Shown piece by piece: positions 2,662-17,844 of a stretch of DNA of 64,000 nucleotides (position 1 is its first letter; every line of letters begins with the position of its first letter). The DNA comes from Thermodesulfobacteriota bacterium (GTDB taxonomy: Bacteria > Desulfobacterota > Desulfobacteria > Desulfobacterales > SURF-7): the NCBI GenBank assembly GCA_049320885.1, contig JBMORA010000001.1, positions 50,612 to 114,611 of the forward strand, written 5' to 3'. A program made the position numbers and the translations under genes. The notes below the pieces were generated by a model that did not search any database, was not told the DNA's origin, and was given only the letters and a program-made list of their open reading frames with translations.

Positions 2662-2690
2662 TTGACACACTGGCAACCGATACATATACT
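2662..2690 (+). promoter_or_regulatory. sigma70 promoter of the biosynthetic operon
   Basis: TTGACA-N17-TATACT, about 50 nt upstream of ATG 2743. Confidence 0.75.
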
Positions 2691-2742: not shown

Positions 2743-4143
2743 ATGAATATCTTATTGATTTTTCCAGCGCCGGAACGATTCCCCATCAGTGTATACCAGT
2801 ACCGCAACGTATCCATCCCCGCTTTTCTGACCCACATGGCAGCGCTCACTCCCAAGGAACACCAGGTTCGCCTGGTCGATATGATGATGGGCGACACCGT
2901 TCCCTACCACGACCGTTTTGACCTGGTTGGCATTACCGTCCGCACGCCCATGGCGCCGGTCTCCTATGCAATTGCCGACCGTTTCCGATCCATGGGAACG
3001 AAGGTCGTTCTGGGCGGGGCCCATGCCTCGGCGCTGCCCATGGAGGCCAAAGGCCACGCCGACGCGGTTGTCATCGGCGAAGCGGAACAAACCTGGGAAA
3101 TGGTTCTGGAAGATGTCCATACCAACAGCTTGCGCGACTTTTATGTCTGCGGGCCCTTTCCATTGGACACGCTCAGCGGCGATTTCCGCCACGTGCCCCA
3201 TCGGCCGGACCTGAAAGATCTGCCGGCACCACGATATGATCGGCTGGATTGCAGTCGCTATATCATGGGAACCTTCTTCACCACCCGCGGATGTACCTAT
3301 GGATGCAAATTCTGCAACGTGCAGCCGTTGTTCGGCGCCCGGACAAGGCACCGCCCCGTCGACCAGGTCATTGGCGAACTGTCAAAGGCCCCCAGACTCC
3401 TGCTGTCGGTGGACGACAATATTTTCGGCGCCCCGGGGGATGTCGATTACTATATGGAACTTTACGGCCGAATGAAAAAGCTCGGGAAATACTGGGCGGG
3501 CCAGGGTTCCCTGGCGGTAACGACCTATCCCCGTGCGGATGGGTTGCTGCAAACAGCAGCGAAAAGCGGTTTATCCCTGCTAACCGCCGGCATCGAGGCG
3601 CTGGACAGCGACGGTCTTGAAGAAAGCGGCGCCTTTCGGAAGCTCGGTCTTTCCGCGCCCGCTAACATCACCACGGACCAGGCCAGGGAAAGCATCCATA
3701 AAATTCAACGTTACGGCATCAACCTGCTGGGCTATTTTATCATCGGTTTCCGTCGACAGACCCCGGCGACCTTCCAGGCGATTCTTGATTTCTGCGACCG
3801 TTTCGCCATCATACCGGTACCGATTCTCCTGCACCCATTGCCCGGCACGCCCCTGTATGAGGAGTACCGGGCGGAAGGCCTGCTGCACGCTCCGCATGGC
3901 TGGGAAGCCTTCGACGGCGCGCATATGGTGGTCCGCCACCCGGAATTCGATGTCGCGGATACCGAACAAAAATATATCCAGACAGTGATGGCCGCCAACA
4001 GCAACGGCCGAAGAGTCTCCCGGACATTCCAGCGCTTTATCCGGAATCCCCGGATCGACAGCTTGATCAATTTTCACAAAACCCAGGGGGTCATGCAGAA
4101 GGGGATCCGGGAATATTTAAAGGAGCGGCGATCGTCTCCATGA
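2743..4143 (+). CDS. Cobalamin-binding radical SAM protein (class B methyltransferase-like)
   Basis: N-terminal B12-binding domain (DLVGIT..VVLGGAHAS..DAVVIGEAE), RGCTYGCKFC (CxxxCxxC), DDNIF, FIIGF, PLPGTPLY. Confidence 0.9.
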   Translation: MNILLIFPAPERFPISVYQYRNVSIPAFLTHMAALTPKEHQVRLVDMMMGDTVPYHDRFDLVGITVRTPMAPVSYAIADRFRSMGTKVVLGGAHASALPMEAKGHADAVVIGEAEQTWEMVLEDVHTNSLRDFYVCGPFPLDTLSGDFRHVPHRPDLKDLPAPRYDRLDCSRYIMGTFFTTRGCTYGCKFCNVQPLFGARTRHRPVDQVIGELSKAPRLLLSVDDNIFGAPGDVDYYMELYGRMKKLGKYWAGQGSLAVTTYPRADGLLQTAAKSGLSLLTAGIEALDSDGLEESGAFRKLGLSAPANITTDQARESIHKIQRYGINLLGYFIIGFRRQTPATFQAILDFCDRFAIIPVPILLHPLPGTPLYEEYRAEGLLHAPHGWEAFDGAHMVVRHPEFDVADTEQKYIQTVMAANSNGRRVSRTFQRFIRNPRIDSLINFHKTQGVMQKGIREYLKERRSSP

Positions 4144-5678
4144 AACCAGCCATATTATTGACCGGTGCCACCGGACTCGTGGGCGCCAGCCTGTTGCGTG
4201 CCCTGATAGAAGAAGATTATCCGGTCATCTGCCTGGCCCGCCCCAGGAACGGCCATTCCCCGGCAATGCGGATACAACATACCCTGGCGGCGCTGTCCCC
4301 TGATCTGACGTCTCCCCGGAAGATCAAAACCCACGTCGAGACCTATTGCGGGGACATCACCCAGCCGCAACTGGGCCTGTCCCTGACGGACTACCGCCAT
4401 CTTGCCCGGACCGTCACCCATGTCTTTCACAGCGCCGCCGCCATCCGTTTTGCGGCGGCCGACACTCACAAGGTTCGCCTGACCAACATCGGCGGCACGG
4501 ACAATCTCCTGGCCTTCTTGCAGGACGCCCCTGCCGTTGAAGGCCTGCATTATATCGGCACAGCCTATATCGCTGGCGACCGGGAAGATCGGGTTTACGA
4601 AGACGATACGGATAAAGGCCAGACATTCAACAACGCCTACGAGGAAAGCAAATTCGTCGCTGAACTCCGCATCCGGGAATTTCAGCGCCGGGCGCTTTCG
4701 AAAGTGACCATCTACCGGCCGGGCATCATTGTGGGGGATTACCTTACCGGCACCACCATCCGGTTCAATACCATGTATCAGTTTCTCAAGGTCCTGCACG
4801 TCCTGAAATCCTCCTACCGCCCCGACAGCAGCGGGAGAACCCACATGCCCATCCGGGTTCTCGCCGATCCCCGGACCACCAAAAACTTTGTCCCCATTGA
4901 TTATGTGGTGAAACTGGTCATGAAAATCTTTTCCGAACCGCGGCTCCATGGCAAAACCTATCATCTGGTCAACCACCAGCCGCCCACCATGGCCCTGATC
5001 CGGGAAGTCATGCTGGACGTGCTGCAGATCAGCGGCCCCACCTTCGTCCCCCCCAAATCCTTCCAGGAAAATCCGCCGGATGAAATCGAACGGGTTTTCA
5101 TCGATGAAACCAAGATCTACACGCCCTACCTGTTGAAGGAACCCGCATTCGACAACACCCATGTCCGCGACATCGCCCCGGGATCCGAATATCTGTGCCC
5201 GCCCATGGACCGGGAGGCCCTGCTCCGGCTTTTCGAATTTGCCGTCCACTCCGGCTGGGGTCGCAACATTTGGAAGCGGGTGCTCAAACCCGCCGAGAAT
5301 GCGCAGGGAAGGACCCAACTGATTCGCAGCTATTTCAACGACTTTTTGCCATCTGTCATGGGCCGGTCGATTTTTGCCGACCTCGACAACCTGAATGCCT
5401 GCATCGGTTTCCTGTTCACCGACAGCCGGGAAAAGTGGACGATTGAAATCAAAAACGGCAAGTTGCAACAAATACGACCACTCCTGCCGGATCGCAGCCA
5501 GGTGAACTATGAACTGGGGGATGACACCTTCGCCCACATCATATCCGGAACGCTGACCCCCCAGGAGGCTTTTTTCACCAATAAATCGAAAATCAAGGGA
5601 GATGCACTGAAAGGTTTGAAGCTTGCAGCCATTTTCGACCGGTTCATCAAGCAATACCCGTATCAAGGCCATGATTGA
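4140..5678 (+). CDS. Extended-SDR acyl-thioester / fatty acyl-CoA reductase-like protein (NAD_binding_4 type) fused to a C-terminal SCP2 lipid-binding domain
   Basis: LLTGATGLVG, GDITQPQLGL, HSAA, NIGGT, YEESK, YRPGIIVG. The last ~105 aa (WTIEIKNG...FAHIISGTLTPQEAFFTNKSKIKGD) fit the SCP2 pattern. ATGA overlap with the upstream gene. Confidence 0.8.
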   Translation: MKPAILLTGATGLVGASLLRALIEEDYPVICLARPRNGHSPAMRIQHTLAALSPDLTSPRKIKTHVETYCGDITQPQLGLSLTDYRHLARTVTHVFHSAAAIRFAAADTHKVRLTNIGGTDNLLAFLQDAPAVEGLHYIGTAYIAGDREDRVYEDDTDKGQTFNNAYEESKFVAELRIREFQRRALSKVTIYRPGIIVGDYLTGTTIRFNTMYQFLKVLHVLKSSYRPDSSGRTHMPIRVLADPRTTKNFVPIDYVVKLVMKIFSEPRLHGKTYHLVNHQPPTMALIREVMLDVLQISGPTFVPPKSFQENPPDEIERVFIDETKIYTPYLLKEPAFDNTHVRDIAPGSEYLCPPMDREALLRLFEFAVHSGWGRNIWKRVLKPAENAQGRTQLIRSYFNDFLPSVMGRSIFADLDNLNACIGFLFTDSREKWTIEIKNGKLQQIRPLLPDRSQVNYELGDDTFAHIISGTLTPQEAFFTNKSKIKGDALKGLKLAAIFDRFIKQYPYQGHD

Positions 5679-6360
5679 AGAATCTGTTTTTTTCCGCTCG
5701 GATCGCTTGAACCTTCACGGCGTTCTGTCATACGCAGAAGATCTCTTCCTCGCGCCGGCGGTCCTGTTGTGCCCGCCCCACCCTCAGCTGGGCGGCAACA
5801 TGGACAACAACGTCATCCGCGCGATCCACAATCTCCTGGCGGCGAACGATTTTGTCAGCTTTCGATTTGACTACCGCGGTGTCGGCAGGAGCGAAGGTGA
5901 TGCTGAAATGGAAGTGGACAGCCTCAAGGCCTTTTGGGAAGATTCCCACAGTCCCTTGGACCTGCCCCGCCAGCAGGATGCCATGGCCGCCTTCGATTAT
6001 TTGCGGCGGATGCCGGGAATCAACCAGCGGGAACTATCCCTCGTGGGGTATTCCTTCGGAGCCCATGCGGCCCTGCAGATCGCCGCCGACGCGCCGTGGC
6101 TCGCGGCCATGGTCCTGGTCGCCCCAACACTTCATTTCCACGATTTCGACCGGCTTGATTCCCTGACCATTCCCAAACTGATCGTCTGGAGCGACAATGA
6201 CTTCTCGTGCCCCCAGGATCATTACACCAAACGTTTCCGGGACTTCGCCGCCCCCAAGGAACACTTGGTTTTCCCGGGGGCGGACCATTTTTTCATCGGC
6301 CATGAAGCGGCCCTGAGCCACCGCGTTCTCCAATTTTTGAAAGGCAGGTTGAATGCATAA
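5671..6360 (+). CDS. Alpha/beta hydrolase (COG2945-like)
   Basis: PPHPQLGGNMDNNV, RFDYRGVGRSEG, nucleophile elbow GYSFG, GADHFF. Start at ATG 5671 overlaps the upstream stop by 8 nt. Confidence 0.85.
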   Translation: MIEESVFFRSDRLNLHGVLSYAEDLFLAPAVLLCPPHPQLGGNMDNNVIRAIHNLLAANDFVSFRFDYRGVGRSEGDAEMEVDSLKAFWEDSHSPLDLPRQQDAMAAFDYLRRMPGINQRELSLVGYSFGAHAALQIAADAPWLAAMVLVAPTLHFHDFDRLDSLTIPKLIVWSDNDFSCPQDHYTKRFRDFAAPKEHLVFPGADHFFIGHEAALSHRVLQFLKGRLNA

Positions 6361-7435
6361 CGTCCCCTGGTTTCATCAATCCGCCGATATCTGGTTGCGT
6401 CACGTGCTGTCGATCCATTTTGATCCGCAAACCGGAACCCCTTACTGGCTGGAACAGGCCCGAAAAATGGGAGTCGATGTATTGCAGCAGATCCGGTCCA
6501 CCGACGACCTCGGCATCCTGGGCCCCATGAACCCAAAGGCCCTCGCCACCCGGCCGGTGGAGGATTTCATTCCCCGCCGCTATCACCTGGAGAAGGAGTC
6601 CTTCACGCTGGGAGATACCGCCGGCACCACCGGCACCCCCAAGGTGACGGCCTATCGCAATGACGAGTTCCATGCCGCCTTTGTGGAATACTTCGGTTTC
6701 GTCGCCGAGAAGCTGGGCTTTCCCAAGAGCTTGAACTGGTTGTGGATCGGTCCAGGAGGGCCCCATATCATTGGCAAAGCCGCACGGATGGTGGCCAGGA
6801 GGATGGGCAGCCTGGATCCGTTCGCCATCGATTTCGACGCCCGCTGGATCAAGAAACTGGTTCCCGGTTCCATGGGCTGGGAGCGCTATTTCCAGCACAT
6901 TGAAGACCAGGCCCTGCACATTCTCAGGACCCAAGACATCGGCGTCCTGTTTTCAACCCCGCCGGTTCTGAAAAGGCTGGCGGATAAAATGAACCCCGCG
7001 CTACGGCGCCGAATCAAGGGGGTCCACTACGGCGGCATGGCGCTTTCCCCGGAGCTGTATCTGCGCCTGCGGAACGACTGTTTTCCCGAAGCCGTTCACA
7101 TTTCCGGATACGGCAACACCCTTTTCGGGGTTTGTCTGGAGGTCGAGTCCAACCCGGACGGGCGCCTTCATTACTTTCCCCCCGGTGTGCGCCTGCTCAT
7201 CGACATCATCGGCCCGGACAACCGGAAAGTGGATTATGGCCAACGAGGCCGGGTGGTTTTCAGTCGTCTGGATGAAAGTTTTTTAATTCTCAACATGCTG
7301 GAACGCGACCAGGCCACCCGTATTCCGGCCGGGGCGGCCGCCCGCGCCTTCGGCCTGACCCTGGACGGCTTGGCTGATCCCGGTCCGGACCCAACGCCGG
7401 ACACAGCGAAAAAGATGGCCCTGGGGCTGTATTAA
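6353..7435 (+). CDS. EhpF/LuxE/PaaK-like short adenylate-forming (ANL superfamily) enzyme
   Basis: HFDPQTGTPYWL, P-loop TAGTTGTPK, GPHIIG, IDFDARWIKK, STPPVL, GYGNT, DYGQRGRV, ERD and terminal GLY. These match my recollection of the phenazine-modifying enzyme EhpF in order and length (~360 aa). Confidence 0.75.
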   Translation: MHNVPWFHQSADIWLRHVLSIHFDPQTGTPYWLEQARKMGVDVLQQIRSTDDLGILGPMNPKALATRPVEDFIPRRYHLEKESFTLGDTAGTTGTPKVTAYRNDEFHAAFVEYFGFVAEKLGFPKSLNWLWIGPGGPHIIGKAARMVARRMGSLDPFAIDFDARWIKKLVPGSMGWERYFQHIEDQALHILRTQDIGVLFSTPPVLKRLADKMNPALRRRIKGVHYGGMALSPELYLRLRNDCFPEAVHISGYGNTLFGVCLEVESNPDGRLHYFPPGVRLLIDIIGPDNRKVDYGQRGRVVFSRLDESFLILNMLERDQATRIPAGAAARAFGLTLDGLADPGPDPTPDTAKKMALGLY

Positions 7436-7454: not shown

Positions 7455-9458
7455 ATGAAAGCGTCCATTTCTTCACCGAAATCCATGGAACTCCTGGCGC
7501 CGGTCGGCCGGTTTAAGGGGCTTGAACCGATCCTGGAAAGCGGTGCCGACGCGGTTTACCTGGCGGGCAAGGATTACAACATGCGCCGCCACCGTTCGGA
7601 TTTCAATTTCGATAGAGACCAGATCGCCCAGACGGCCGTGAAAGTTCATGACGCCGGCGCCAAACTGTATGTGGCGGTGAACAGCCTCTTGAGCGACCAA
7701 GAACTGGAAGGTGTCGGCGACTACCTCCGGTTTCTGCAGTCCGTGGGCGCCGACGCCATCATCGTGCAGGACCTGGGCCTCATCCGGCTGGTGAAGGAAA
7801 GGGAAATCCATCTACCCCTTCACGCCAGCACCATGATGAATATCCACAGCGCCGAGGGCGCCATCGCCGCCGCCGGACTTGGTATTGGCCGCATCATCTG
7901 CTCCCGGGACATTACCCTGGCTCAAGTCGAGGAGATGGGCCGGAAGAGCGGTCTGGAGATGGAATATTTCGTCCATGGCGATATGTGCTTTGTCCAAAGC
8001 GGCCAGTGCTATGCCAGCGGCCTGATTTTCGGAAACAGCAGCAATCGGGGCAAATGCATGAAACCCTGCCGATGGCCCTATGAATTGATCGATCTGGCCG
8101 ATGGTTCACGTCTGCCGGCCAGAATGGAAGGCAACTATCTTCTGGCCGTCAAGGACATGTGCCTGCTGCAGCGCATCCCCGAATTGGTGCAGGCCGGAAT
8201 CGTTTCTCTCAAAATCGAGGGGCGCATGCGGCCACCGGAATTCATGTCCCAAATCGTCAACATCTACAGAAGGGCCATCGACAGGTACCACACCGACCCC
8301 TTGGGCTATTCGGACAATTTTGACTTGTTCGAGGAACTCTATCGGGAACGGGTAAGGGAGTTTTCAACCAGCGTCGCCTTCCGTAGACCCGGTGCCGAAT
8401 TCATCGGTTCCACCGGAGAACGGGAACCCCTCTTCCTGAGCACCGGGGCTGTATTACCCGAGATCGACCTGCTGGACGATCCGGAAGGATTCCCCACGGC
8501 CCCAAGGGCACTCCAGAGCCCCCGGCCGGAACTGGCCGTGCATGTGGCCACGCCGCAAGCGGCCGCCCGGGCGCTGGCCGGCGGCGCTGACTGGATCTAT
8601 GTCGGTGGCGAAGTCCCCAGCCGGCATGATCATGGGTGGAACCAAGCCGCATTGGAATGCATTATCCGGGATACCCGGGCAAGCGGCAAAAAGGTCGGCC
8701 TGCTGACCCCCCGGGTCACCGTCGCCCATCAACTGCAGGGACTCGCCCGGTTGCTGGACGGCCGTCTGGCGGAACCACCGGACGCCGTGCTGGTCCACAA
8801 TCTGGGCAGTCTGCAACTGCTCAAGGCAACCACCGACATCCCCATCCACGCTGATTTTTCCTTGAATGTCATCAATGTCAAGGCTCTGGAGCTGCTGCAC
8901 AGCCTCGGGGCTGCCCGGGCGACCGTTTCCCTCGAAGCCGCCTTTGATACCGTGGCCGCCCTCGCCGCCGCCCCCCCCATGCCCCTTGAATGCCTGGTCC
9001 ATGGCCCCTTGCCCGGCATGTACGCGGAACATTGCCTGATCAGCCTGGCCCTGCGCGGAACCTCGGCCGACGAGCCTTGCCGCGGCACCTGCCGCCATCT
9101 TCGCTGTGGCCTGAAAAACCGGTACGCCGATATCTTCCCCGTGGAAACGGACCAGTATTGCCGCAGCCATATTCTCCTGTCGAAAGATCTGGCCTGCCTG
9201 CGGGTTATCGGCGCATTCTTTCACCCGGGTATAAAAAGCCTCCGCATCGAAGGGCAGTACTATGACCCGTCGCTGGTGGGGTATCTGACGGAGCTGTATG
9301 CCAGGACCATCCAGACCCCCGACGAACCCATCGGGGAAAAGGCCCTGCAACGCCTTGTGTCGCAAAGTCCCAGGGGATTCAGCCTCGGTGCCTATCCCAA
9401 AGGGATCTTTGCCGAAAGAGCGGAAGACTACAAAACCGTCAAAAAGGATATGAAATGA
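7455..9458 (+). CDS. Tandem two-domain peptidase-U32-family Fe-S protein (UbiU-UbiV/RlhA-like O2-independent hydroxylase)
   Basis: ELLAPVG..GADAVY, HASTMMN, exact CX6CX15CX3C motif, SLKIEGR. Second U32 barrel with GADWIYVG, HADFSLN, CX14CX3C and SLRIEG. GGAGG RBS. Confidence 0.85.
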   Translation: MKASISSPKSMELLAPVGRFKGLEPILESGADAVYLAGKDYNMRRHRSDFNFDRDQIAQTAVKVHDAGAKLYVAVNSLLSDQELEGVGDYLRFLQSVGADAIIVQDLGLIRLVKEREIHLPLHASTMMNIHSAEGAIAAAGLGIGRIICSRDITLAQVEEMGRKSGLEMEYFVHGDMCFVQSGQCYASGLIFGNSSNRGKCMKPCRWPYELIDLADGSRLPARMEGNYLLAVKDMCLLQRIPELVQAGIVSLKIEGRMRPPEFMSQIVNIYRRAIDRYHTDPLGYSDNFDLFEELYRERVREFSTSVAFRRPGAEFIGSTGEREPLFLSTGAVLPEIDLLDDPEGFPTAPRALQSPRPELAVHVATPQAAARALAGGADWIYVGGEVPSRHDHGWNQAALECIIRDTRASGKKVGLLTPRVTVAHQLQGLARLLDGRLAEPPDAVLVHNLGSLQLLKATTDIPIHADFSLNVINVKALELLHSLGAARATVSLEAAFDTVAALAAAPPMPLECLVHGPLPGMYAEHCLISLALRGTSADEPCRGTCRHLRCGLKNRYADIFPVETDQYCRSHILLSKDLACLRVIGAFFHPGIKSLRIEGQYYDPSLVGYLTELYARTIQTPDEPIGEKALQRLVSQSPRGFSLGAYPKGIFAERAEDYKTVKKDMK

Positions 9459-10741
9459 AACCCATTGGTCCGGAGGCCATACGCCAGAAAAAAAAAAGCT
9501 ATCTGCTCCCCTGTCTGTTTCATTTTTATCAGCATCCACCCCAGATCGTGAAGGGCGAAAGGCAGTATCTGATCGATCATGAAGGGAGACCATATCTCGA
9601 TTTTTATGCCGGCGTCGCGGTGGTCAACGCCGGCCATTGCCACCCGGAGATCACGGAAAAAACCTGCGCCCAGATCAGGACCCTCCAGCACACCACCACC
9701 ATTTATCTCACCCAGCCGATAGTGGATATGGCGGAAAAAGTGGCAGCGATCGCCCCGGCGGGACTGGATAAATGTTTTTTCTGCAACAGCGGTTCAGAGG
9801 CCAATGACGGTGCCCTGATACTGGCCCGTCTGGCGACAGGGCGTCACGGCACCATCAGCCTGACCCATGGTCTCCACGGAAGAACCTATCTGACCCTGAG
9901 CGTCACGGGGATCCCCATGTGGCGGACCGACAATGCCCCTTACAAGGAGGCCATGCTCATCCCCGGCCCCAACTGCTATCGCTGTCATTTTCAAATGCGC
10001 TATCCGACCTGTGACGTTCATTGTGCCCGCAACCTTGAAAAAGCGATCACGCCGGATACGGCGGCCTTCATCGCGGAACCTGTCGCCGGCAACGGCGGCA
10101 TCATCGTTCCGCCGCCCGAATATTTCCCCATCATTCGGGAGATCACCCGTAAAGCAGGCATCCTCTTTATTTGTGATGAAGTTCAAACCGGCATCAATCG
10201 CACCGGGAAGATGTTCGCCATCGAACACTGGGGAGTGACCCCGGATATCCTGACCATGGCCAAAGCCCTTGGCAACGGGGTCCCCGTAGGCGCTTACGTC
10301 ACAACGGCAGCCATCGCGGCCGCCCATGTCAAACCCGGCGCGTCGACCCTGGGAGGAAATCCGGTGACAGCGGCGACTGTGATGGCCACCCTGGAGGTCC
10401 ATGAAAAAGAAAGACTCCAAACGCGGGCCCACTCCCTCGGCCTCTATTTCAAGGAGCAATTGAAGGCCTTGCAGGAGAAGTATCCGATCATCGGGGATGT
10501 CCGCGGCATCGGTCTGATGCTCGGCGCCGAACTGGTGAAAACAGACGGAAGCGCCGACGCGGAAACCTGCGATCGGATCCTGGAATCGATGAAGGATGAC
10601 GGCGTCCTGATCGGCAAGACCGGTATCGGCAGAAACGTGCTGACGTTCCAGCCGCCGTTGATCGTGACAAAAGACAATATCGACGAGGTGCTGGGCAAAC
10701 TGGACAGCGCGCTCATGCGCAACCACCCGCATGCTTCCTGA
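9455..10741 (+). CDS. Class III PLP-dependent aminotransferase
   Basis: [40 protein letters not shown] (PLP Lys), [13 protein letters not shown] overlap with the U32 gene. Confidence 0.92.
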
Positions 10742-10825
10742 CAAGCAGAAGATTCGTCGCCCGCCCGTTTTGGGTTTTCCTGGCGGGCGGCCTGCTTTCG
10801 GCGGCCTGCGATGATCTGACAGCAG

Positions 10826-13039
10826 ATGAGGTTTATCGTGGCGGAAATCTTTCTCCTTTGGATCCTGCGGAATTCTGGCAAAGTCTGGATTGTCCTGATG
10901 GCGCTTGCCGTGGTGTTCGGCTACAACGCATCCAAAGTGCGCATGGACAACTCCATGGAAGTATGGATCCCCCTTAAAAGCCCGATCAAAACCCAATATG
11001 AACGTTTCCTCCAGGAGTTCGGTTCCGAGGAATACATGCTGGTCGCCTTTCAACTCCCTGGGGGACTGAGCCGGGACCATCTTGTGATGACCGGCCGATT
11101 GAGCCGCGCGCTGAAAAAGGAATCCGGAATCCGCAGCGTCTGGTCCCTGACGGAAATTTTCGATCGACCAAGCGAATACATCGATCTTTTCAAGATAATG
11201 ATCCTGTCGTCGGGTTTTGCAAAGCATCTGCTCATCGCGCCGGATGGCAAGGCCGCCGGCATCATTGTCCTGCTTTCCGAAGGAGGCCTTCGCGACAGAG
11301 GCGGTGTGCTGAAGCGAATCAAGGAAACCGTGGCGGCAACACTGCCCCATGGCCCCGAGGCCTTTATCGCCGGCCCATCCGTCATCAACGCCGAACTGGA
11401 CCATATCTCCCAGCGGAATGCGATGATCTATTACCCGATCCTGTTTGCCGCCTGTCTGTTTATGCTGCTGATGATTTTCAAGTCCTTGACCGGCGTCGTT
11501 GTGCCTGCGCTGATGGCGGGCTTCGCTCTCATGCTGACGGTGGGCTGGATGGGAATTCTGGAAGCCGAACTGAATGTCATCACCATCGCTGTGCTGCCAC
11601 TGGTCATGGTCACATCGCTGGCCTATTCCATTTATTTTTACAACGATTATGAAGGGCATGGGGAGCACCGTCCTCCTGCCGCCGTTGGAAGCCATGAGTC
11701 CGCTGTGATGAAGGCCTATAACAATATCCACCTGCCCTTGTTCCTCAGCGCCCTGACAACCGTGATCGGCTTTTTATCCCTCATGGCCAGCGATATCGGG
11801 CCTGTCAGCGACCTGGGGCTTTTCGTCGCCCTGGGGATCGGGTCGACCTTTCTCTTGGCCATTTCATTTCTGCCCCTGCTCCTGATGCGATTTCCCCGGC
11901 CGCATCCAAAACCGCGGCCGTCGGAGCCCCTTCATGGGCCGGCCGGTTTTTTCCCACGCACAGGACGTTTCGTCCTCCAATCCAAAAGATGGGTCATCGC
12001 TATCTTCAGCCTCGGCATGATCCTGGCCGGCATCGGCATGAGCAACCTCAGCATCGAAACCGACGCCTTGATGTTCTTCCCGGATGACTCGCCCATCGTG
12101 GCCGCCTATCATTTCATCGAGAGCCGTTTCACCGCCTTGGCGCCGGTGGAAGTCGTCATCACGGCCCAGGATGCGCCATGGGAAAACCACCTGCCGGATT
12201 ACGACACCCGAATGAAAATAAAAAGCTTCCAGGAAGACATTCTGCAAAATCCGGAAATCGTCACCTCCAAATCCATCGTGGACATTTGGGAAGATACCAT
12301 CAGTGCCGAACTCATGGAAACCAGCGCCATCCCGAATCAGCGCCTGCTGCAGAGTCTCGAGACGGCAAGCCGCTATTTCATCAACGACCGTGGAACAACT
12401 ACCCGCATTTCCGTCCGCGTCAAGAGCCTGGCTTCCAACCAGTTCCAAACCATCGTCACCTATATCGAAGCAAAAGCCCGGGAGCATTTCAACGGCTGGC
12501 GGGATGTTTATATAACCGGAATCGTTCCTATTATCGTCGACATGCAGAACCAGCTGCTGCAGAGCCTGATGAAAAGTTTCCTGATCGCGTTCGGCATCAT
12601 ATTCGGGGTCTTCCTCCTCCTGTTGAAATCGATGAAAAAGGCAGCCATCTGCATGTTCGTGAATCTGCTCCCGATCGTCGTCATTTTCGGATTTATGGGC
12701 TGGATGGACATCAAGCTGAGTGTGGCCACCGTGATGATCGGGAGCATCGCCATCGGGATCTGCGTGGATGACACTGTCCATTTCATCACGCGCCTGAAAC
12801 AGGAAAGCTACGGTACCGCCGACCTGCATGGGCCGCTCCTGATAACCCTCGCCGCCACCGGCAAATCGATCGCATCTACATCGCTGGCCAATCTATCCGG
12901 ATTCATCGTGCTCTGCTTTTCCGGTTTTGTTCCCATGCAGCAGTTCGGTATGTTGACCGGCATCACCATTGTCATCGCCATGCTGGCGGATCTGCTGCTC
13001 CTGCCAGCCTTGCTGGCGTTTTTCCGGATCAGACTTTAA
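10826..13039 (+). CDS. MMPL/RND family exporter
   Basis: Two TM-periplasmic-5TM halves; FLSALTTVIGFLSL; AIGICVDDTVHF. Confidence 0.88.
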   Translation: MRFIVAEIFLLWILRNSGKVWIVLMALAVVFGYNASKVRMDNSMEVWIPLKSPIKTQYERFLQEFGSEEYMLVAFQLPGGLSRDHLVMTGRLSRALKKESGIRSVWSLTEIFDRPSEYIDLFKIMILSSGFAKHLLIAPDGKAAGIIVLLSEGGLRDRGGVLKRIKETVAATLPHGPEAFIAGPSVINAELDHISQRNAMIYYPILFAACLFMLLMIFKSLTGVVVPALMAGFALMLTVGWMGILEAELNVITIAVLPLVMVTSLAYSIYFYNDYEGHGEHRPPAAVGSHESAVMKAYNNIHLPLFLSALTTVIGFLSLMASDIGPVSDLGLFVALGIGSTFLLAISFLPLLLMRFPRPHPKPRPSEPLHGPAGFFPRTGRFVLQSKRWVIAIFSLGMILAGIGMSNLSIETDALMFFPDDSPIVAAYHFIESRFTALAPVEVVITAQDAPWENHLPDYDTRMKIKSFQEDILQNPEIVTSKSIVDIWEDTISAELMETSAIPNQRLLQSLETASRYFINDRGTTTRISVRVKSLASNQFQTIVTYIEAKAREHFNGWRDVYITGIVPIIVDMQNQLLQSLMKSFLIAFGIIFGVFLLLLKSMKKAAICMFVNLLPIVVIFGFMGWMDIKLSVATVMIGSIAIGICVDDTVHFITRLKQESYGTADLHGPLLITLAATGKSIASTSLANLSGFIVLCFSGFVPMQQFGMLTGITIVIAMLADLLLLPALLAFFRIRL

Positions 13040-14443
13040 CAGCACCCGCAGCTTTCTGGTGATTCCAAGCAGGTACGCATGCTTCCACACCGGACGGAAT
13101 CGAAGCCTCCGGGCCAATTGTTGCAGCAGTACATTAGCGGGCCAATACCAGTCTTCGGCGCTGCTCCAGGTCAGCTCGGGATAACAAAACCGGTCGACGT
13201 CCGTTACATGCTGGATGCCCATGGCCTTGGACAGATAGCAGACCGGCCGTAAAAGCCCTGCCTCATCGGACAGGAGGCCCTCTTTTCTGGCAACGGCCTC
13301 CAGTTCGGTCCCTGGATAAATTCGCATGCCCAGATTGAACAAAACCTGGTTGGGTTTTTTGATCGTTTTGAGGAAAGCGACGGTTTCCCGCATGGTTTCC
13401 TTGGTCTCGCCCGGTCCACCCAGCAGAATGCAGAATAAAAACGGAATCCCGTGTCGGGAATACAATTCGGCGGTATGGGCGATATCGCTTTTTGCAAACC
13501 GTTTTTTCAGATTCTTCAGCATGACCTCCGAGGCCGAATCGATGCCGACTTCCACCCCGATGCATCCGGACGCCTTCATCAACGCTACAAGGCCTGCATG
13601 GATACCGCGGGGGCTGGTCATGGCGGACCAGTGGATCCTCAGCTTGCGCCGGACGATTTCCGCGCATATGGCTCTTGCATGCTGCTCCGGAAATGAAAAA
13701 ACGCTGTCGACAAAATAGAAATGGGCAACCCCTTGGTCCCGATGCAGCCCCTCGATCTCATCCACGACAGCGGCGGGAGCGCGCAGACGGTAGCGCCGGC
13801 CTTCGACGAGCGGATAACAGCAGTAAATGCAATTGAAGGCGCAGCCGCGCTTTGTCTGAACAGCGGCGTAGCCGCCATGGCGGAGATACGCTTTCAGATC
13901 GATCAAATCCCAGGCCGGTCTCGCCAGCGCATCCATTTCACTGAATTGCTTTCTATTATTGGTGATGTAACGATTTTCCCGGGCATACACCAGCCCGGGA
14001 ACCATGGCAATATCTTCCCCGTTCCGGTGTTTCTGAAGAAACGAAAGAAAGCTTTCCTCCCCTTCACCGACGATTCCATACGAAAGTCCCAGATAGTGCA
14101 AAATCCCTTCCGGGCAACTGGAAAAACCGGCCCCGCCGATGATGATGTCTCGATTGGTTGCATTCTTGACAGTATCAACGACGGTCTTGACTTCTTCCAG
14201 ATAGCTCCTTGATCCGATACAAGTGGAATTATCCAGGTTTCTAAGCGATATTCCGATCAGATCAGGCTTGAAGTGCGTTACAGCCTCGCGAACCTCCTTT
14301 TCGCCATGGGCTGCAAAACACAAATCCAGCAATCTCACGGTGTATCCATTCTCCCGGAGTGTTCCCGCGATGTACGCCAGCCCGATGGGCGCCACAGGAA
14401 AAGGCAGCATTTCCCGGCTGGTTGAAATCAGCAAGATCTTCAA
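12893..14443 (-). CDS. Cobalamin-binding radical SAM protein resembling the lipid-biosynthesis-associated (ladderane-island type) family
   Basis: Probable TTG start at 14443 after GGGAGG. KILLIS...PFPVAPIGLAYIA, LIGISLRNLDN, QTKRGCAFNCIYCCYPLVEG, FYFVDSVF, LLGGPGET, RIYPGT. The last 147 nt overlap the MMPL gene. Confidence 0.85.
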   Translation of the reverse strand: MKILLISTSREMLPFPVAPIGLAYIAGTLRENGYTVRLLDLCFAAHGEKEVREAVTHFKPDLIGISLRNLDNSTCIGSRSYLEEVKTVVDTVKNATNRDIIIGGAGFSSCPEGILHYLGLSYGIVGEGEESFLSFLQKHRNGEDIAMVPGLVYARENRYITNNRKQFSEMDALARPAWDLIDLKAYLRHGGYAAVQTKRGCAFNCIYCCYPLVEGRRYRLRAPAAVVDEIEGLHRDQGVAHFYFVDSVFSFPEQHARAICAEIVRRKLRIHWSAMTSPRGIHAGLVALMKASGCIGVEVGIDSASEVMLKNLKKRFAKSDIAHTAELYSRHGIPFLFCILLGGPGETKETMRETVAFLKTIKKPNQVLFNLGMRIYPGTELEAVARKEGLLSDEAGLLRPVCYLSKAMGIQHVTDVDRFCYPELTWSSAEDWYWPANVLLQQLARRLRFRPVWKHAYLLGITRKLRVLLKSDPEKRQQGWQEQQIRQHGDDNGDAGQHTELLHGNKTGKAEHDESG

Positions 14444-14620
14444 GTCCCTTCCTCCCAGTTGCCGTTGAACCAAAGTCCACCCCCAAACCGATTATCAAAC
14501 TATCCGGCACCAAAGCAACCATAACTACTCCACCCTGGCCGAAGCGCGCATCTGCGTCCTGCTCCGGCTTGTTCATTTACTTTTCAGGCGTATGGTTGCA
14601 TGCTATGGAAAATTTTTTGC

Positions 14621-14655: not shown

Positions 14656-15120
14656 ATGAACGCCAAGACCCAAACCATTGCCCAATTGATGCTGCAGTTT
14701 TACCGGATCGTCAACAAGATCACGGAACTGGAAAAAACGCCCTATGATTTCGGTGTCGGCGAAAAACTTTATCCATCTGAAATTCATACGATACAGGCCA
14801 TCGGCAACAACAGCGGCATCAACGTTACCGAACTGGCCAAAAATCTCGGCATCACCAAAGGGGGCGCTTCCCAAATGATATCCAAACTCAAGAAACGTGG
14901 CTTCATCAACAAAGTCAGAAGCATGGAAAACGACAAGGAAGTGCTTCTGATCCTGACAGCCAAAGGCCAGACCGCCTACAACGGGCACGAACAATTTCAT
15001 GCCGACCTGTATATCGACTTTGTCGCCTACATGAATGATATCAGCCGGGAACAGATCGATATATTTAAAGATATTTTAGAAAAAATAGAGTTTTATGTGG
15101 ACCGGTATCGCATAGAATAA
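14656..15120 (+). CDS. MarR family transcriptional regulator
   Basis: LYPSEIHTIQAIG...NVTELAKNLGITKGGASQMISKLKKRGFI...DKEVLLILTAKG winged helix. Confidence 0.9.
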   Translation: MNAKTQTIAQLMLQFYRIVNKITELEKTPYDFGVGEKLYPSEIHTIQAIGNNSGINVTELAKNLGITKGGASQMISKLKKRGFINKVRSMENDKEVLLILTAKGQTAYNGHEQFHADLYIDFVAYMNDISREQIDIFKDILEKIEFYVDRYRIE

Positions 15121-15137
15121 TTTTTTTTGCCATTATT

Positions 15138-15152
15138 GTTTAGTTCATAAAC
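15138..15152. promoter_or_regulatory. Palindromic operator copy 2
   Basis: Perfect GTTTA-N5-TAAAC upstream of the gene at 15177. Confidence 0.55.
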
Positions 15153-15176
15153 CTTAATATGAATTGAGCCGACACC

Positions 15177-15866
15177 ATGAGGATCTGGTCACCCACCCAC
15201 GGCGAGCCGCCAAACGAAAAATACCGGGAACTGCTTCACCGATTCGGGGACAAACGGAAGAAAACGGTGATTTTTCTTTCCCACTGTATTCTGAACGAGA
15301 ACACCCGGTATCCCGGCGGTGCCTGCCGGGCAGGCTGCCTGGCGGAAATTGTTCATCAGTGCATCGACCACGGGCTGGGAATGGTTCAGCTGCCCTGCCC
15401 GGAGCAATCTGCCTGGGGCGGAGTCTCCAAACGGTTGCTGTTGATGGCATATGGTGCCGACGGAACGATTTTATTTACCCTTCGGCAGTTCGCTGTGCCC
15501 TTGATTCGGATTTATTCCCGATGGATGAACGGTCGAATCGCGACCCGAATCGTCCGCCATATCCAGGACTATCTCGATTCCGGCTTCAGCGTTCGGGGCA
15601 TCGTCGGCATTGACGGTTCGCCCACCTGCGGCGTCGACAAAATCCTGGATTTCAGGAAATCGTTTGAAGTGCTGGCCTCCATGGATATCACTGCCGTTAC
15701 GGCGACGGATGCAGGTAAGGTGGTGCGGGAATGCCTGGTGGATGGGGAAGGTTTTTTCATTCAGGCCCTGCGAACCAAACTGAACCGCAGAAGACTATTT
15801 ATCCCTTTCCTGGGCCACAATCTGATTGCGGAGCTGGCTGGGGAAAAGAGCAATGTGATCCTGTAA
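15177..15866 (+). CDS. DUF523/TudS-related putative Fe-S desulfidase
   Basis: FLSHCILNEN, QLPCPE and GIDGSPTCG cysteine motifs. Confidence 0.7.
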   Translation: MRIWSPTHGEPPNEKYRELLHRFGDKRKKTVIFLSHCILNENTRYPGGACRAGCLAEIVHQCIDHGLGMVQLPCPEQSAWGGVSKRLLLMAYGADGTILFTLRQFAVPLIRIYSRWMNGRIATRIVRHIQDYLDSGFSVRGIVGIDGSPTCGVDKILDFRKSFEVLASMDITAVTATDAGKVVRECLVDGEGFFIQALRTKLNRRRLFIPFLGHNLIAELAGEKSNVIL

Positions 15867-16106
15867 AATGAGGACAAGTACCATGCAGAACATATCTCGT
15901 GCAGAAATGGGCGCTATGCCCCAGGTCAAAGCAGCTGAACGGCCGGGGGTGTCGGAATGAAATGGTTTCCAATCCATCGCACTCCGCCGAAACCGGTTGA
16001 TTTCCGTTGCAAATCAGCCCCACAGCACCCCTATAACCATCCCCCGGCAAGCCCTGAGCTATCAGCGCCCTCATACGGAGTCGTCACTCGGGACAGCAAC
16101 GGCCAA

Positions 16107-16790
16107 TCCTGGCGCTTGGAATCCCTGCGATGGTACGACAAATGGCTGAAGGGGAAGAATACCGGAATCGAGCAGGATCCGCCGGTCAACATCTGGATCA
16201 TGGGCCGCAACCAGTGGCGGGCGGAAATTGAATGGCCCATCGGTCGTACAAAATATGTCGATCTCTACCTCCGGCCGCAGGGGATGCGCGGAGGCACCGG
16301 CAGGCTCTGCCAGGAGCGACCCGAAACAGCCGAAAGAAAAATGTCCTATCTGTCCTGGCCCTTTTCTCCCGGAATAATCGGCCGGTCGCAACTGGTCTAC
16401 CGCAGTGATATTCTTTGTTCGGAAGTGGAGGTCACCGGGCACATCGTGCTCACCCTATATGCCGCCTGCATCTGGCCGAACGCGAATCGTTTCCTTACTG
16501 GTCATCGGATTCGGTTGGAAATCGCCTGCACCGAGTCGATTTATCATGATTTCCCCTATGTCCACTTCTCCGCGCTTTCCTGCGGCAAGGTCAGCGTGAT
16601 CAGTTCACCGGAATATCCCTCAAAGCTGACCCTGCCGCTGGTGGATTCCAGCCTGGAATTCAACGGCGATGATGCCGGCATCCAATTCGAGAAGCATCCA
16701 TCCAATTATTTCGCCACCAACGGGAAAGCAAGACGATTCGGGTGCGAGAAGGAAACATCCGTGGAGATGCTTGAAAGGAGTGTGCTATGA
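16107..16790 (+). pseudogene. C-terminal fragment of a CocE/NonD family hydrolase with an internal deletion
   Basis: LRWYDKWLKG...PPV.IWIMG.NQWR.E.EWP...LYL, EVTGHI.LTLYAA, GHRIRLEI, YPSKLTLP. No catalytic N-terminal domain, and the segment normally between LYAA and IWPxAN is absent. Confidence 0.7.
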
Positions 16791-17272
16791 CGAATAAAAT
16801 GACGAAGTGGGGCTGTGGACCACGATTCGGACTTTATTCCGCTTTCTATTGCATCCTGATGTTCGGTTTGACGATATATTTTGAGCCGCTCTTTACCATA
16901 GCCTTTATACCATACGGATTTTCGAGATGGCTTGCTATCGCTCCCCTTATCCTGGGAATCCCTTTCTATCTCTTTTCCCTTGTATCCGTTATGCGCGCCT
17001 TTAAAGCCGGTAAGCTCGTTACCAAAGGTGTATATGGTATGTGCCGGCATCCGGTATATTCCGCCTGGATCCTATTTTTCATTCCGGGTCTCGCTTTGCT
17101 TCTCAACTCCTGGGCGCTCTTGTCCGCTTCCGTTGTGCTGTATTTCCTGGCAAGATTCATGGTCAGGGAAGAAGATATGTATCTAGAGATTATGTTTGGC
17201 GAGGAATATTTGAAATACAAATCCGAAGTTCCGGCCATCCTGCCATACGGCTGGCAAACGCGTCACAAATGA
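16787..17272 (+). CDS. ICMT/PEMT family membrane methyltransferase
   Basis: LVTKGVYGMCRHPVY, EEDMYL..FGEEY..YK..VP; multiple TM segments; AAGGAG RBS. Confidence 0.85.
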   Translation: MTNKMTKWGCGPRFGLYSAFYCILMFGLTIYFEPLFTIAFIPYGFSRWLAIAPLILGIPFYLFSLVSVMRAFKAGKLVTKGVYGMCRHPVYSAWILFFIPGLALLLNSWALLSASVVLYFLARFMVREEDMYLEIMFGEEYLKYKSEVPAILPYGWQTRHK

Positions 17273-17370
17273 GGGCATACCTGATGGGTATGGGAGATGG
17301 GAGCCTCCTCTACCGGATAAGTCTTTAAAAAAATAGGATCATATCGTCCCAAAAAGATAAGGATCAACAA

Positions 17371-17844
17371 ATGATTACATTAAAAACAATCGTGAAGGTC
17401 AAAGGGATTACGTCAAAGGATATCTATGATTTCATGCTCAATTGCACGGATGCGGACTATCAAAGGTGGTGGGCAGGCACGCACCTGGTTTGCCATACGG
17501 TGAAACACTATCCCGGCGATATCGGCAACATCATCTATGCAGATGAATTTGTAGGTAAATATAGGGTAAAGGGACACGCCGTCATCACCAGGCTGGTGCC
17601 GTACAGCGAAATGGTCTACCAGATCAAGAAGCTCATCAAATTACCCGCATGGTTCACCATGATATTCGAAGAAGTGGATGACGGTCTCAACATCGTCCAT
17701 ATCGTGGAGGTGGGGTTCCATGGTATCGGGAGGATCATCGATCCCATCATCCGGTTTTTTCTGAATGATGATTTTGAAAGCGCGTTAAACGCCCATGCCC
17801 ATGAAGAATTCCCCAAGTTGGCCAAGATGTTGGCGACGCAATGA
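17371..17844 (+). CDS. Hypothetical protein, possibly SRPBCC/START fold
   Basis: IYDFM...YQRWW..H, beta-rich middle, C-terminal helix HAHEEFPKLAKML. Confidence 0.55.
   Translation: MITLKTIVKVKGITSKDIYDFMLNCTDADYQRWWAGTHLVCHTVKHYPGDIGNIIYADEFVGKYRVKGHAVITRLVPYSEMVYQIKKLIKLPAWFTMIFEEVDDGLNIVHIVEVGFHGIGRIIDPIIRFFLNDDFESALNAHAHEEFPKLAKMLATQ

Follow-up and report, generated by a model that had tools for sequence, protein, structure and literature searches.

The U32 proteins characterised so far hydroxylate RNA or ubiquinone precursors. These are the sole substrates known for U32 hydroxylases according to the available text of one study, which proposes a mechanism with prephenate as oxygen donor and states that no in vitro assay exists (PMC10990095); the accessible part of a review of the family likewise covers RNA and ubiquinone only (PMC11574389). 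RlhA, the 23S rRNA ho5C2501 synthase, has in its Clostridia-type form a DUF3656 domain set between two U32 barrels, RlhA1 and RlhA2. TrhP forms ho5U34 in tRNA, in Bacillus as the two-U32 arrangement TrhP1/TrhP2, and UbiU and UbiV, with UbiT, carry out the O2-independent hydroxylation of ubiquinone.

Here we describe a different U32 protein, encoded in a stretch of 64,000 nucleotides from a Thermodesulfobacteriota bacterium (assembly GCA_049320885.1, contig JBMORA010000001.1, positions 50,612 to 114,611; hereafter the window). Its gene takes fifth place in a series of seven that point the same way, in the order B12-binding radical S-adenosylmethionine (SAM) protein, thioester reductase-SCP2, alpha/beta hydrolase, EhpF-like ligase, U32, class-III pyridoxal phosphate (PLP) enzyme and MMPL exporter. 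Start and stop codons overlap at most junctions, which, with a promoter-like site ahead of the first gene, supports a single operon; the biosynthetic setting claimed in an earlier note on this DNA is borne out. The protein, which we call tandem U32, represents a real and undescribed subfamily and marks what is probably a new branch of anaerobic naphthoquinone chemistry.

A tandem U32 protein derived from RlhA

The 667-residue frame matches PF01136 twice and no further Pfam family. Neither DUF3656 nor Peptidase_U32_C was found in the Pfam scan, in keeping with the earlier note's remark that the chain leaves little room for DUF3656, and the protein lies far under the cut-off of all four NCBIfam U32 models. 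Structure prediction of the chain alone, as that note had proposed, gave two alpha/beta barrels in an alignment-based AlphaFold2 model (pLDDT 92.9, pTM 0.93). The barrels had been described as joined by a short Pro-rich linker; the barrels stand, but the description of the linker is incomplete, since residues other than proline are conserved as well (across 83 sequences G321, E324, P325, F327, S329 and E334 vary little or not at all). The spacer has a family median of 50 residues, against about 210 in Clostridium RlhA. Some Brocadiales carry variants of 730–750 residues in which the inter-barrel region is apparently longer (L097:8642-10882; P0063, P0070, P0081), and in the closest named relative (L006) the reductase-SCP2 and U32 frames (4235-5847, 9986-12033) each read as two, through a true split or possibly an assembly error.

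The first barrel contains exactly the CX6CX15CX3C motif that had been read in it (C178, C185, C201, C205), so that the PF01136 barrel with a four-cysteine motif of the form CX6CX15CX3/4C that characterises the U32 superfamily is present. These four cysteines and E170 are invariant in all 232 family members gathered; RlhA shares both the motif and the conserved Glu, and TrhP shares the motif. The second barrel had been credited with CX14CX3C and with lacking the N-terminal cysteine of UbiV. This is correct, Pro388 (in GGEVPS) standing at that site when the sequence is read against UbiV C39, but incomplete, as a fourth, co-conserved cysteine, C569, had been missed. The resulting C-x14-C-x3-C-x22-C set, found in full in 161 of the 232 members, has the same spacing as the RlhA2 domains of Clostridium and Paenibacillus and makes a full ligand set possible in barrel 2 without a UbiV-type cysteine. 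The motifs of E. coli UbiU (CX6CX16CX38C) and UbiV (CXnCX12CX3C), in our own reading and in the available text of PMC6747719, are spaced differently; neither barrel, therefore, has a Ubi motif. By analogy with other U32 proteins, the protein is predicted to bind [4Fe-4S] clusters, and its first barrel would hydroxylate with prephenate.

The phylogeny against TrhP, RlhA, UbiU and UbiV that the earlier note had called for was tested on subsets of 31 and 30 rows (LG+G4, 4–8 references per family); a U32 tree of 87 rows was run in quick mode only. The 31-row tree unites the first barrels of the tandem family in a single clade (100/99) with RlhA1 as its sister group (99/98); their union with UbiU (p-AU 0.018) or with TrhP (p-AU 0.028) is rejected. 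In the 30-row tree the second barrels join RlhA2 (99/98), and their union with UbiV is narrowly rejected (p-AU 0.043), a borderline value obtained with RlhA2 rows that are long branches. Of the other structures in the ESM Atlas, a DUF3656-containing U32 protein of 827 residues comes closest (TM 0.87); Foldseek with the U32 model returned generic TIM barrels and U32 Mk0906, and a PDB sequence search with the protein gave no match. From the placement of both barrels and the structural match it follows that the protein is an RlhA1-RlhA2 descendant minus the middle region: tandem U32 is an RlhA derivative that lost the DUF3656 region. A UbiU-UbiV fusion, the label originally given to it, is rejected by the motifs and by the trees of both barrels.

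Tandem U32 thus combines the RlhA1-type first and RlhA2-type second barrels of RlhA with the loss of DUF3656, a domain called unique to RlhA in the accessible text of PMC5727448. It also differs from the TrhP/PepU32#1 proteins, which are single barrels of about 410–450 residues in the TrhP clade. The source genome holds three other U32 genes, for a 410-residue protein of the TrhP/PepU32#1 type, a 609-residue RlhA with DUF3656 and a 724-residue member of the RlhA1 clade; its DUF3656 is located in the C29 paralogue. Further U32 genes are present in all ten other carriers checked, each of which, like the source genome, has a separate long RlhA-type U32 (five were judged by frame length only). The separate housekeeping copies that the earlier note had wanted looked for are therefore there, and of the outcome it had set against its own proposal, grouping within RlhA or TrhP as the only copy, half came about: the protein groups next to RlhA, yet it is not the genome's only copy. 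The separate paralogue, the absence of DUF3656 and the biosynthetic setting make a small-molecule substrate likely. Table S2 of Kimura 2017 (PMC5727448) lists two RlhA1+RlhA2 proteins in Thermacetogenium phaeum and one in Jettenia caeni, so that members of the tandem family have probably been filed under RlhA.

The PLP-enzyme partner and the quinone-related settings

Tandem U32 was found in 1 of 401 genomes sampled from its own phylum, that one being the source genome, in 14 of 301 from the planctomycete phylum and in 48 of 401 from the Bacillota. The best matches, at no more than 59% identity, include deltaproteobacterial proteins, followed by Brocadiales (Scalindua, Brocadia, Jettenia, Anammoxibacter) and Firmicutes (Sporomusa, Syntrophomonadaceae). 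The nearest loci for both the U32 and the PLP enzyme are again deltaproteobacterial and then Brocadiales-like, which fits horizontal gain of the operon. Gene neighbourhoods were compared in 63 genome loci, in 40 Bacillota loci fetched from the 48 carriers and in 13 planctomycete loci; 55 of the 63 genome loci are titled Paenibacillus, so the counts are not independent.

It is the class-III PLP enzyme, not SCP2, that regularly accompanies the U32 gene. The PLP gene lies at most 428 nucleotides downstream of the U32 gene in 63 of 63 genome loci, and beside it in 25 of the 40 Bacillota loci (10 with a prenyltransferase) and 10 of the 13 planctomycete loci; the corresponding counts for SCP2/reductase near U32 are 4/63, 0/40 and 8/13. 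The SCP2 domain that the earlier note had seen in the operon is real. As the key link to UbiT it is not supported, being so rare among the genome loci and matching E. coli UbiT at 24% over 79 residues. The domain is either part of a reductase chain or encoded after one, and the whole set of reductase-SCP2, hydrolase, ligase and MMPL occurs near U32 in 4 of the 63 genome loci; a predicted complex of U32 with the SCP2 domain scored 0.00, which is evidence in neither direction.

Orthologues of the PLP enzyme are present in 47 of 64 carrier genomes, and an orthologue-level match occurs in 1 of 72 MqnC-positive genomes, 71 of which lack a match to the tandem gene. Distances among U32 proteins and among PLP enzymes correlate (Spearman 0.80 over 65 loci), although shared descent accounts for much of this. 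The PLP enzyme retains the catalytic K270 and D241. Position 397, which we take to be Arg in γ-aminobutyrate-type enzymes, is Ala or Thr in 97 of 97 orthologues, and the highly conserved K388 and R393 might, to judge from the alignment, serve in place of the carboxylate-binding Arg.

The earlier note had suggested a non-quinone lipid as a possible substrate; the recurring neighbours are instead genes of menaquinone synthesis by the futalosine route and of electron transfer. Near the pair, UbiA/MqnP-type genes occur in 57, HepT in 51 and Ndh2 in 51 of the 63 genome loci. In Paenibacillus the pair sits between ECF-transporter genes and an MqnP-type prenyltransferase, with HepT, Ndh2 and an FMN-binding lipoprotein opposite and often ApbE, which makes this a locus of the flavin-based extracellular electron transfer (FLEET) type; FLEET genes include DmkA, DmkB, Ndh2 and PplA (PMC10746273, available part). 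In Clostridium sp. CF012, UbiD (a fragment), MqnP-type, UbiX, ABC importer, HepT and Ndh2 genes lie beside it. The U32-PLP pair is thus embedded in settings otherwise known from the futalosine pathway (MqnA-E, MqnP/L/M) and from FLEET loci. In the open literature searched, neither a U32 protein nor a class-III aminotransferase is described in either setting, no open-access paper was found that links U32 proteins with the futalosine pathway, with FLEET loci or with operons of anammox bacteria, and "U32" is absent from the main text of PMC4746308, PMC13386864, PMC13524794 and PMC8238504. In several Brocadiales-like loci (L090-L097) the operon is preceded by genes of the GT2, lipid-A-biosynthesis N-terminal and ArnT/PMT-like types. 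Some carriers of U32 and aminotransferase have elsewhere (L246-L249) a run of three consecutive radical SAM genes of the MqnE/MqnC type, in L246 two MqnE-like and one MqnC, followed by a phosphorylase.

The long operon of the window recurs in planctomycete loci, where cytochrome b6-like and multiheme c genes follow it in 8 of 13. In two loci (L008, L037) the operon opens with MqnA and an MqnE-MqnC fusion; the fusion is 730–750 residues long (L037:2306-4552, L008:2362-4554). Another genome (G145) has the separate blocks EhpF-hydrolase-MqnE-MqnC-MqnA, U32-MqnB and MqnD-aminotransferase, and in the blocks of this genome and of G078 the gene for ligase, U32 or PLP enzyme stands directly next to mqnA/E/C, mqnB or mqnD. 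The source genome itself contains mqnA/B/C/D/E and genes for MqnP-type and UbiX proteins, together with three for chorismate mutases. Among the Bacillota, MqnC is enriched in carriers (25 of 48, against 71 of 353 non-carriers), with a p-value inflated by kinship, as related genomes are not independent. Viewed from the ligase, in metagenome loci anchored on the best 80 of 216 EhpF relatives, many of them on short contigs, tandem U32 is present in 48, a divergent MqnD in 12, both in none and neither in 20. Six of the 80 begin with MqnA and MqnE-MqnC, all of them of the U32 type and without MqnD. The divergent MqnD mostly occupies the slot of U32 in sister operons, and the exchange of one for the other requires at least three changes on a ligase tree made in quick mode, whose 44 rows are the query and 43 of the 80 loci. 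This repeated linkage to mqn genes suggests that the long operon works on a product of the futalosine pathway, with U32 as one module.

The sister operons with divergent MqnD (L307, L311-L313, L318, L320, L324, L325, L327-L329, L331) encode a subfamily with YTPDSDDAF and, in most, IHEELL, often with a thioredoxin-like gene next; one of them (L331) has a canonical MqnD as well. The proposed MqnZ resembles methylthioadenosine phosphorylase, and tandem U32 is found in 20 of the 28 genomes whose MqnC matches score lowest.

The operon in the window and its surroundings

The features of the operon are collected in the table below.

Table. Features of the tandem U32 operon and its convergent neighbour, in window positions
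Feature	Position	Strand	Basis
Sigma-70-type promoter-like site, 11/12 matches, 53 nt ahead of first gene	2662..2690	+	Consensus match only
B12-binding radical SAM protein, CxxxCxxC at 184, likely methyltransferase, accessory	2743..4143	+	Profile scans
Thioester reductase (NAD_binding_4; TGATG, YEESK intact) with C-terminal SCP2, about residues 414-500	4140..5678	+	Pfam, motifs
Alpha/beta hydrolase (GYSFG, NDF, HFF); possible acyltransferase or thioesterase	5671..6360	+	Pfam, motifs
EhpF-like adenylating enzyme, aromatic acids	6353..7435	+	EhpF E 3.5e-31, sole PDB family match
Tandem U32 protein, 667 aa, RlhA1-RlhA2-like without DUF3656	7455..9458	+	Open frame, Pfam scan, AlphaFold2, trees
Barrel-1 motif C178-x6-C185-x15-C201-x3-C205	7986..8069	+	Motif reading, family alignment
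Barrel-2 motif C527-x14-C542-x3-C546-x22-C569, RlhA2-type spacing	9033..9161	+	Motif reading, family alignment
Class-III PLP enzyme, AGXT2/ETNPPL group (K270, DEVQTG)	9455..10741	+	Pfam, PDB search, alignment
MMPL/RND-type exporter	10826..13039	+	Pfam/NCBIfam scans
Convergent B12 radical SAM protein, TIGR04072, 365 bits against cut-off 360	12893..14473	-	Profile match

The start of the hydrolase (ATG at 5671) is inferred from the overlap with the upstream stop codon, and the ligase is called ThnN-like by another annotation. An EhpF-like adenylating enzyme is shared with the aryl-carboxylate reductases EhpF/EhpG and GriC/GriD; here the reductase is a thioester-reductase R domain. A B12-binding radical SAM gene lies near the U32 gene in 1 of the 63 genome loci (L006). 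Two products suggested by the gene content were rejected. For a hopanoid, the look-alikes of HpnJ, HpnN and HpnO are far under their cut-offs and no cyclase is found among the annotated neighbours; for a phenazine, suggested by EhpF, no phz core gene is found among the annotated neighbours, not every neighbour having been scanned.

Upstream of the promoter-like site, on the same strand, lie an HU/IHF-like gene recognised by eye (1911-2186) and a short Lys/Ala-rich open reading frame (about 2262-2488). On the other side, the convergent "lipid biosynthesis" gene overlaps the 3' end of the MMPL gene and has at least three paralogues in the genome at 37–39% identity. It is followed by a plus-strand stretch (14656-17844) with a G+C content of 0.50, below that of the genome, that encodes a MarR regulator, a TudS-related protein, an apparently truncated C-terminal fragment of CocE/NonD (15957-16790) and an ICMT-family methyltransferase.

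Proposed role and competing explanations

We consider it an even call whether tandem U32 is a prephenate-dependent hydroxylase of a futalosine-derived naphthoquinol that is then aminated, giving an undescribed naphthoquinone-type electron carrier; that ring hydroxylation comes before amination, in exactly this order, is more doubtful. Under this proposal a two-cluster [4Fe-4S] hydroxylase of RlhA descent would have been drawn into a side branch of the futalosine (menaquinone) pathway. Barrel 1 would oxidise a naphthoquinol-type ring, either 1,4-dihydroxy-6-naphthoate or a tailed form, adding OH from prephenate as proposed for UbiUV, and barrel 2 would act as an optional electron relay where its cysteines are kept. 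The PLP enzyme would insert nitrogen; the simplest way would be to replace the newly added ring oxygen by NH2. Hydroxylase and PLP enzyme are combined by the same logic in naphthoquinone hydroxylation and oxidative transamination of the MomA/Fur3 type; the substrates in Streptomyces are polyketide naphthoquinones, and the enzymes there come from other families. The lipid anchor in the Bacillota might come from the MqnP-type prenyltransferase, HepT and UbiD/UbiX, on a head group made in-house or imported by the ABC transporter. In the operon of the window and in anammox-like and planctomycete loci, the EhpF-like enzyme would adenylate the 6-carboxyl, reductase-SCP2 and hydrolase would reduce or acylate it, and the MMPL protein would export the result. 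In the long operon the PLP enzyme might alternatively aminate an aldehyde produced by the EhpF-like enzyme and the reductase; GriC/GriD reduce an aryl acid to the aryl aldehyde (PMC10179220, available part), and Fur3 carries out oxidative transamination of the hydroxynaphthoquinone mompain (PMC11969235, available part). The product would be a hydroxy- or amino-naphthoquinone-type carrier for cytochrome b/multiheme c modules or for flavin-based extracellular electron transfer.

Several observations weigh against this proposal. The closest characterised relative of tandem U32 is an rRNA hydroxylase, and the cysteines of barrel 2 are gone from 58 of 59 sequences of the Paenibacillus/Clostridium group. 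Among the 40 Bacillota loci, one belongs to neither type and 14 lie in a yggS-sepF-proC-divIVA-ileS region without the aminotransferase (loci of this type are L174, L185, L187-L193 and L195-L199); genomes of these carriers lack an orthologue of it, and their U32 proteins form a sister clade to the rest of the tandem family. The solved structure closest to the PLP enzyme is that of ethanolamine-phosphate phospho-lyase, which, with Ala/Thr at 397, means that the enzyme may be a lyase and not a transaminase. Two genomes (G027 and G060; L354, L355) have the operon with reductase-SCP2, EhpF-like ligase and multiheme cytochromes but without tandem U32 or MqnD, and with a different, more distant class-III aminotransferase; together with the 20 ligase-anchored loci that show neither gene, they indicate that the aminotransferase of the long operon may serve the reductase, not U32. 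At the threshold used, 23 of the 48 Bacillota carriers have no MqnC match. In five such carriers that were tested an MqnP-type gene is always present and MenB never exceeds the cut-off, so their substrate would be imported or different. UbiD is present in all of an overlapping set of five, and in two genomes (G819, G003) the MqnP-type/UbiD genes are placed with an ABC importer, which looks like salvage of an imported head group. Finally, among 96 MqnC-positive Bacillota genomes (MqnD called at E < 1e-60 with a 7-row profile and counted by hand), MqnD is present in 5 of 25 carriers and in 27 of 71 non-carriers (p=0.14; one carrier, G898, is a partial match).

These last counts bear equally on an alternative that we regard as unlikely, in which tandem U32 stands in for MqnD: it would supply the second ring oxygen and turn a mono-oxygenated intermediate into an ordinary, or nearly ordinary, 1,4-dihydroxynaphthoate head group, and the aminotransferase would act later or elsewhere. 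The mutual exclusion and repeated exchange of U32 and divergent MqnD in the ligase-anchored loci speak for this, as do the operons headed by MqnA/E/C that hold U32 and no MqnD, two genomes without an MqnD match (G001, G002), and the 20 of 25 MqnC-positive Bacillota carriers without MqnD, a gap that matches the one in the available text of PMC4746308. Yet exclusion across genomes is not significant; the source genome, G005, G145, G078 and five Brocadiales-like genomes hold both genes, and a general replacement of MqnD by tandem U32 is not supported across genomes. Neither gene is found in 44 of the 96 genomes, so the MqnD gap is wider than the tandem family. The reaction of MqnD is, moreover, a redox-neutral retro-aldol, which would need no hydroxylase.

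Descent from RlhA invites the view that the protein is a shortened RlhA that still hydroxylates RNA, at another rRNA or tRNA site, beside neighbours that are coincidental or just co-regulated. The affinity of both barrels, the probable counting of family members as RlhA in Table S2 and the position of the aminotransferase-free clade among housekeeping genes are all consistent with it; the loss of RlhA's own domain, the long RlhA-type U32 found alongside it in every carrier checked, the patchy spread and the three different quinone-related contexts make it quite improbable. The median pI of the family, 5.9, is a weak hint in the same direction, E. coli RlhA having 6.7 and the charge comparison being uninformative. 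We hold as slightly less probable still that SCP2 hands over a non-quinone lipid for hydroxylation, such as a fatty alcohol or an ether-lipid, hopanoid or ladderane-related compound, made and exported by reductase, hydrolase and MMPL protein. The reductase-SCP2, MMPL and B12 radical SAM genes, the convergent TIGR04072 gene and the inclusion of anammox bacteria, known for their unusual lipids, among the nearest relatives would suit such a role. The scarcity of SCP2/reductase outside the planctomycete loci, the EhpF type of the ligase, for aromatic acids, and the extra genes of the long operon, which are mqnA/E/C/D and cytochromes, oppose it; the "lipid F" of Negativicutes was also considered as a product, and the literature searched gave nothing relevant.

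Compared with the described systems, then, tandem U32 would work like UbiUV but is not a member; it descends from RlhA but lacks the domain that defines RlhA. With UbiUV it has in common two barrels, likely two clusters, no DUF3656, a substrate that is probably aromatic or prenyl-aromatic and, in some loci, a nearby SCP2 domain; its cysteine motifs and clades are different, its context is naphthoquinone, its partner is an aminotransferase, and SCP2 is optional and tied to a reductase. It is tentatively possible that an undescribed, oxygen-free route to an amino- or hydroxy-naphthoquinone carrier, a naphthoquinone counterpart of rhodoquinone, is common to anammox bacteria and other planctomycetes, to a few deltaproteobacteria and to many Firmicutes. 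In that event an enzyme that modified rRNA would have given rise to the hydroxylase through the loss of a single domain, separately from the origin of UbiUV, and the carrier would be prenylated in Firmicutes, would bear a non-isoprenoid tail and be exported in the window operon and in anammox bacteria, and would serve dedicated cytochrome b/multiheme c or flavin-based chains.

If the proposed role is correct, U32 proteins would have entered quinone chemistry a second time and independently, and a single-chain U32 with a probably soluble naphthoate substrate would offer a practical direct test of prephenate-dependent hydroxylation. The long operon is found next to cytochrome genes in different anammox genera and may therefore bear on electron movement in these bacteria. 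According to the accessible text of a 2026 survey, many Bacillota seem to be without quinone pathways and other quinones may await discovery (PMC13386864); for seeking such quinones, the U32-PLP gene pair would provide a marker, and Paenibacillus and Sporomusa cultured hosts.

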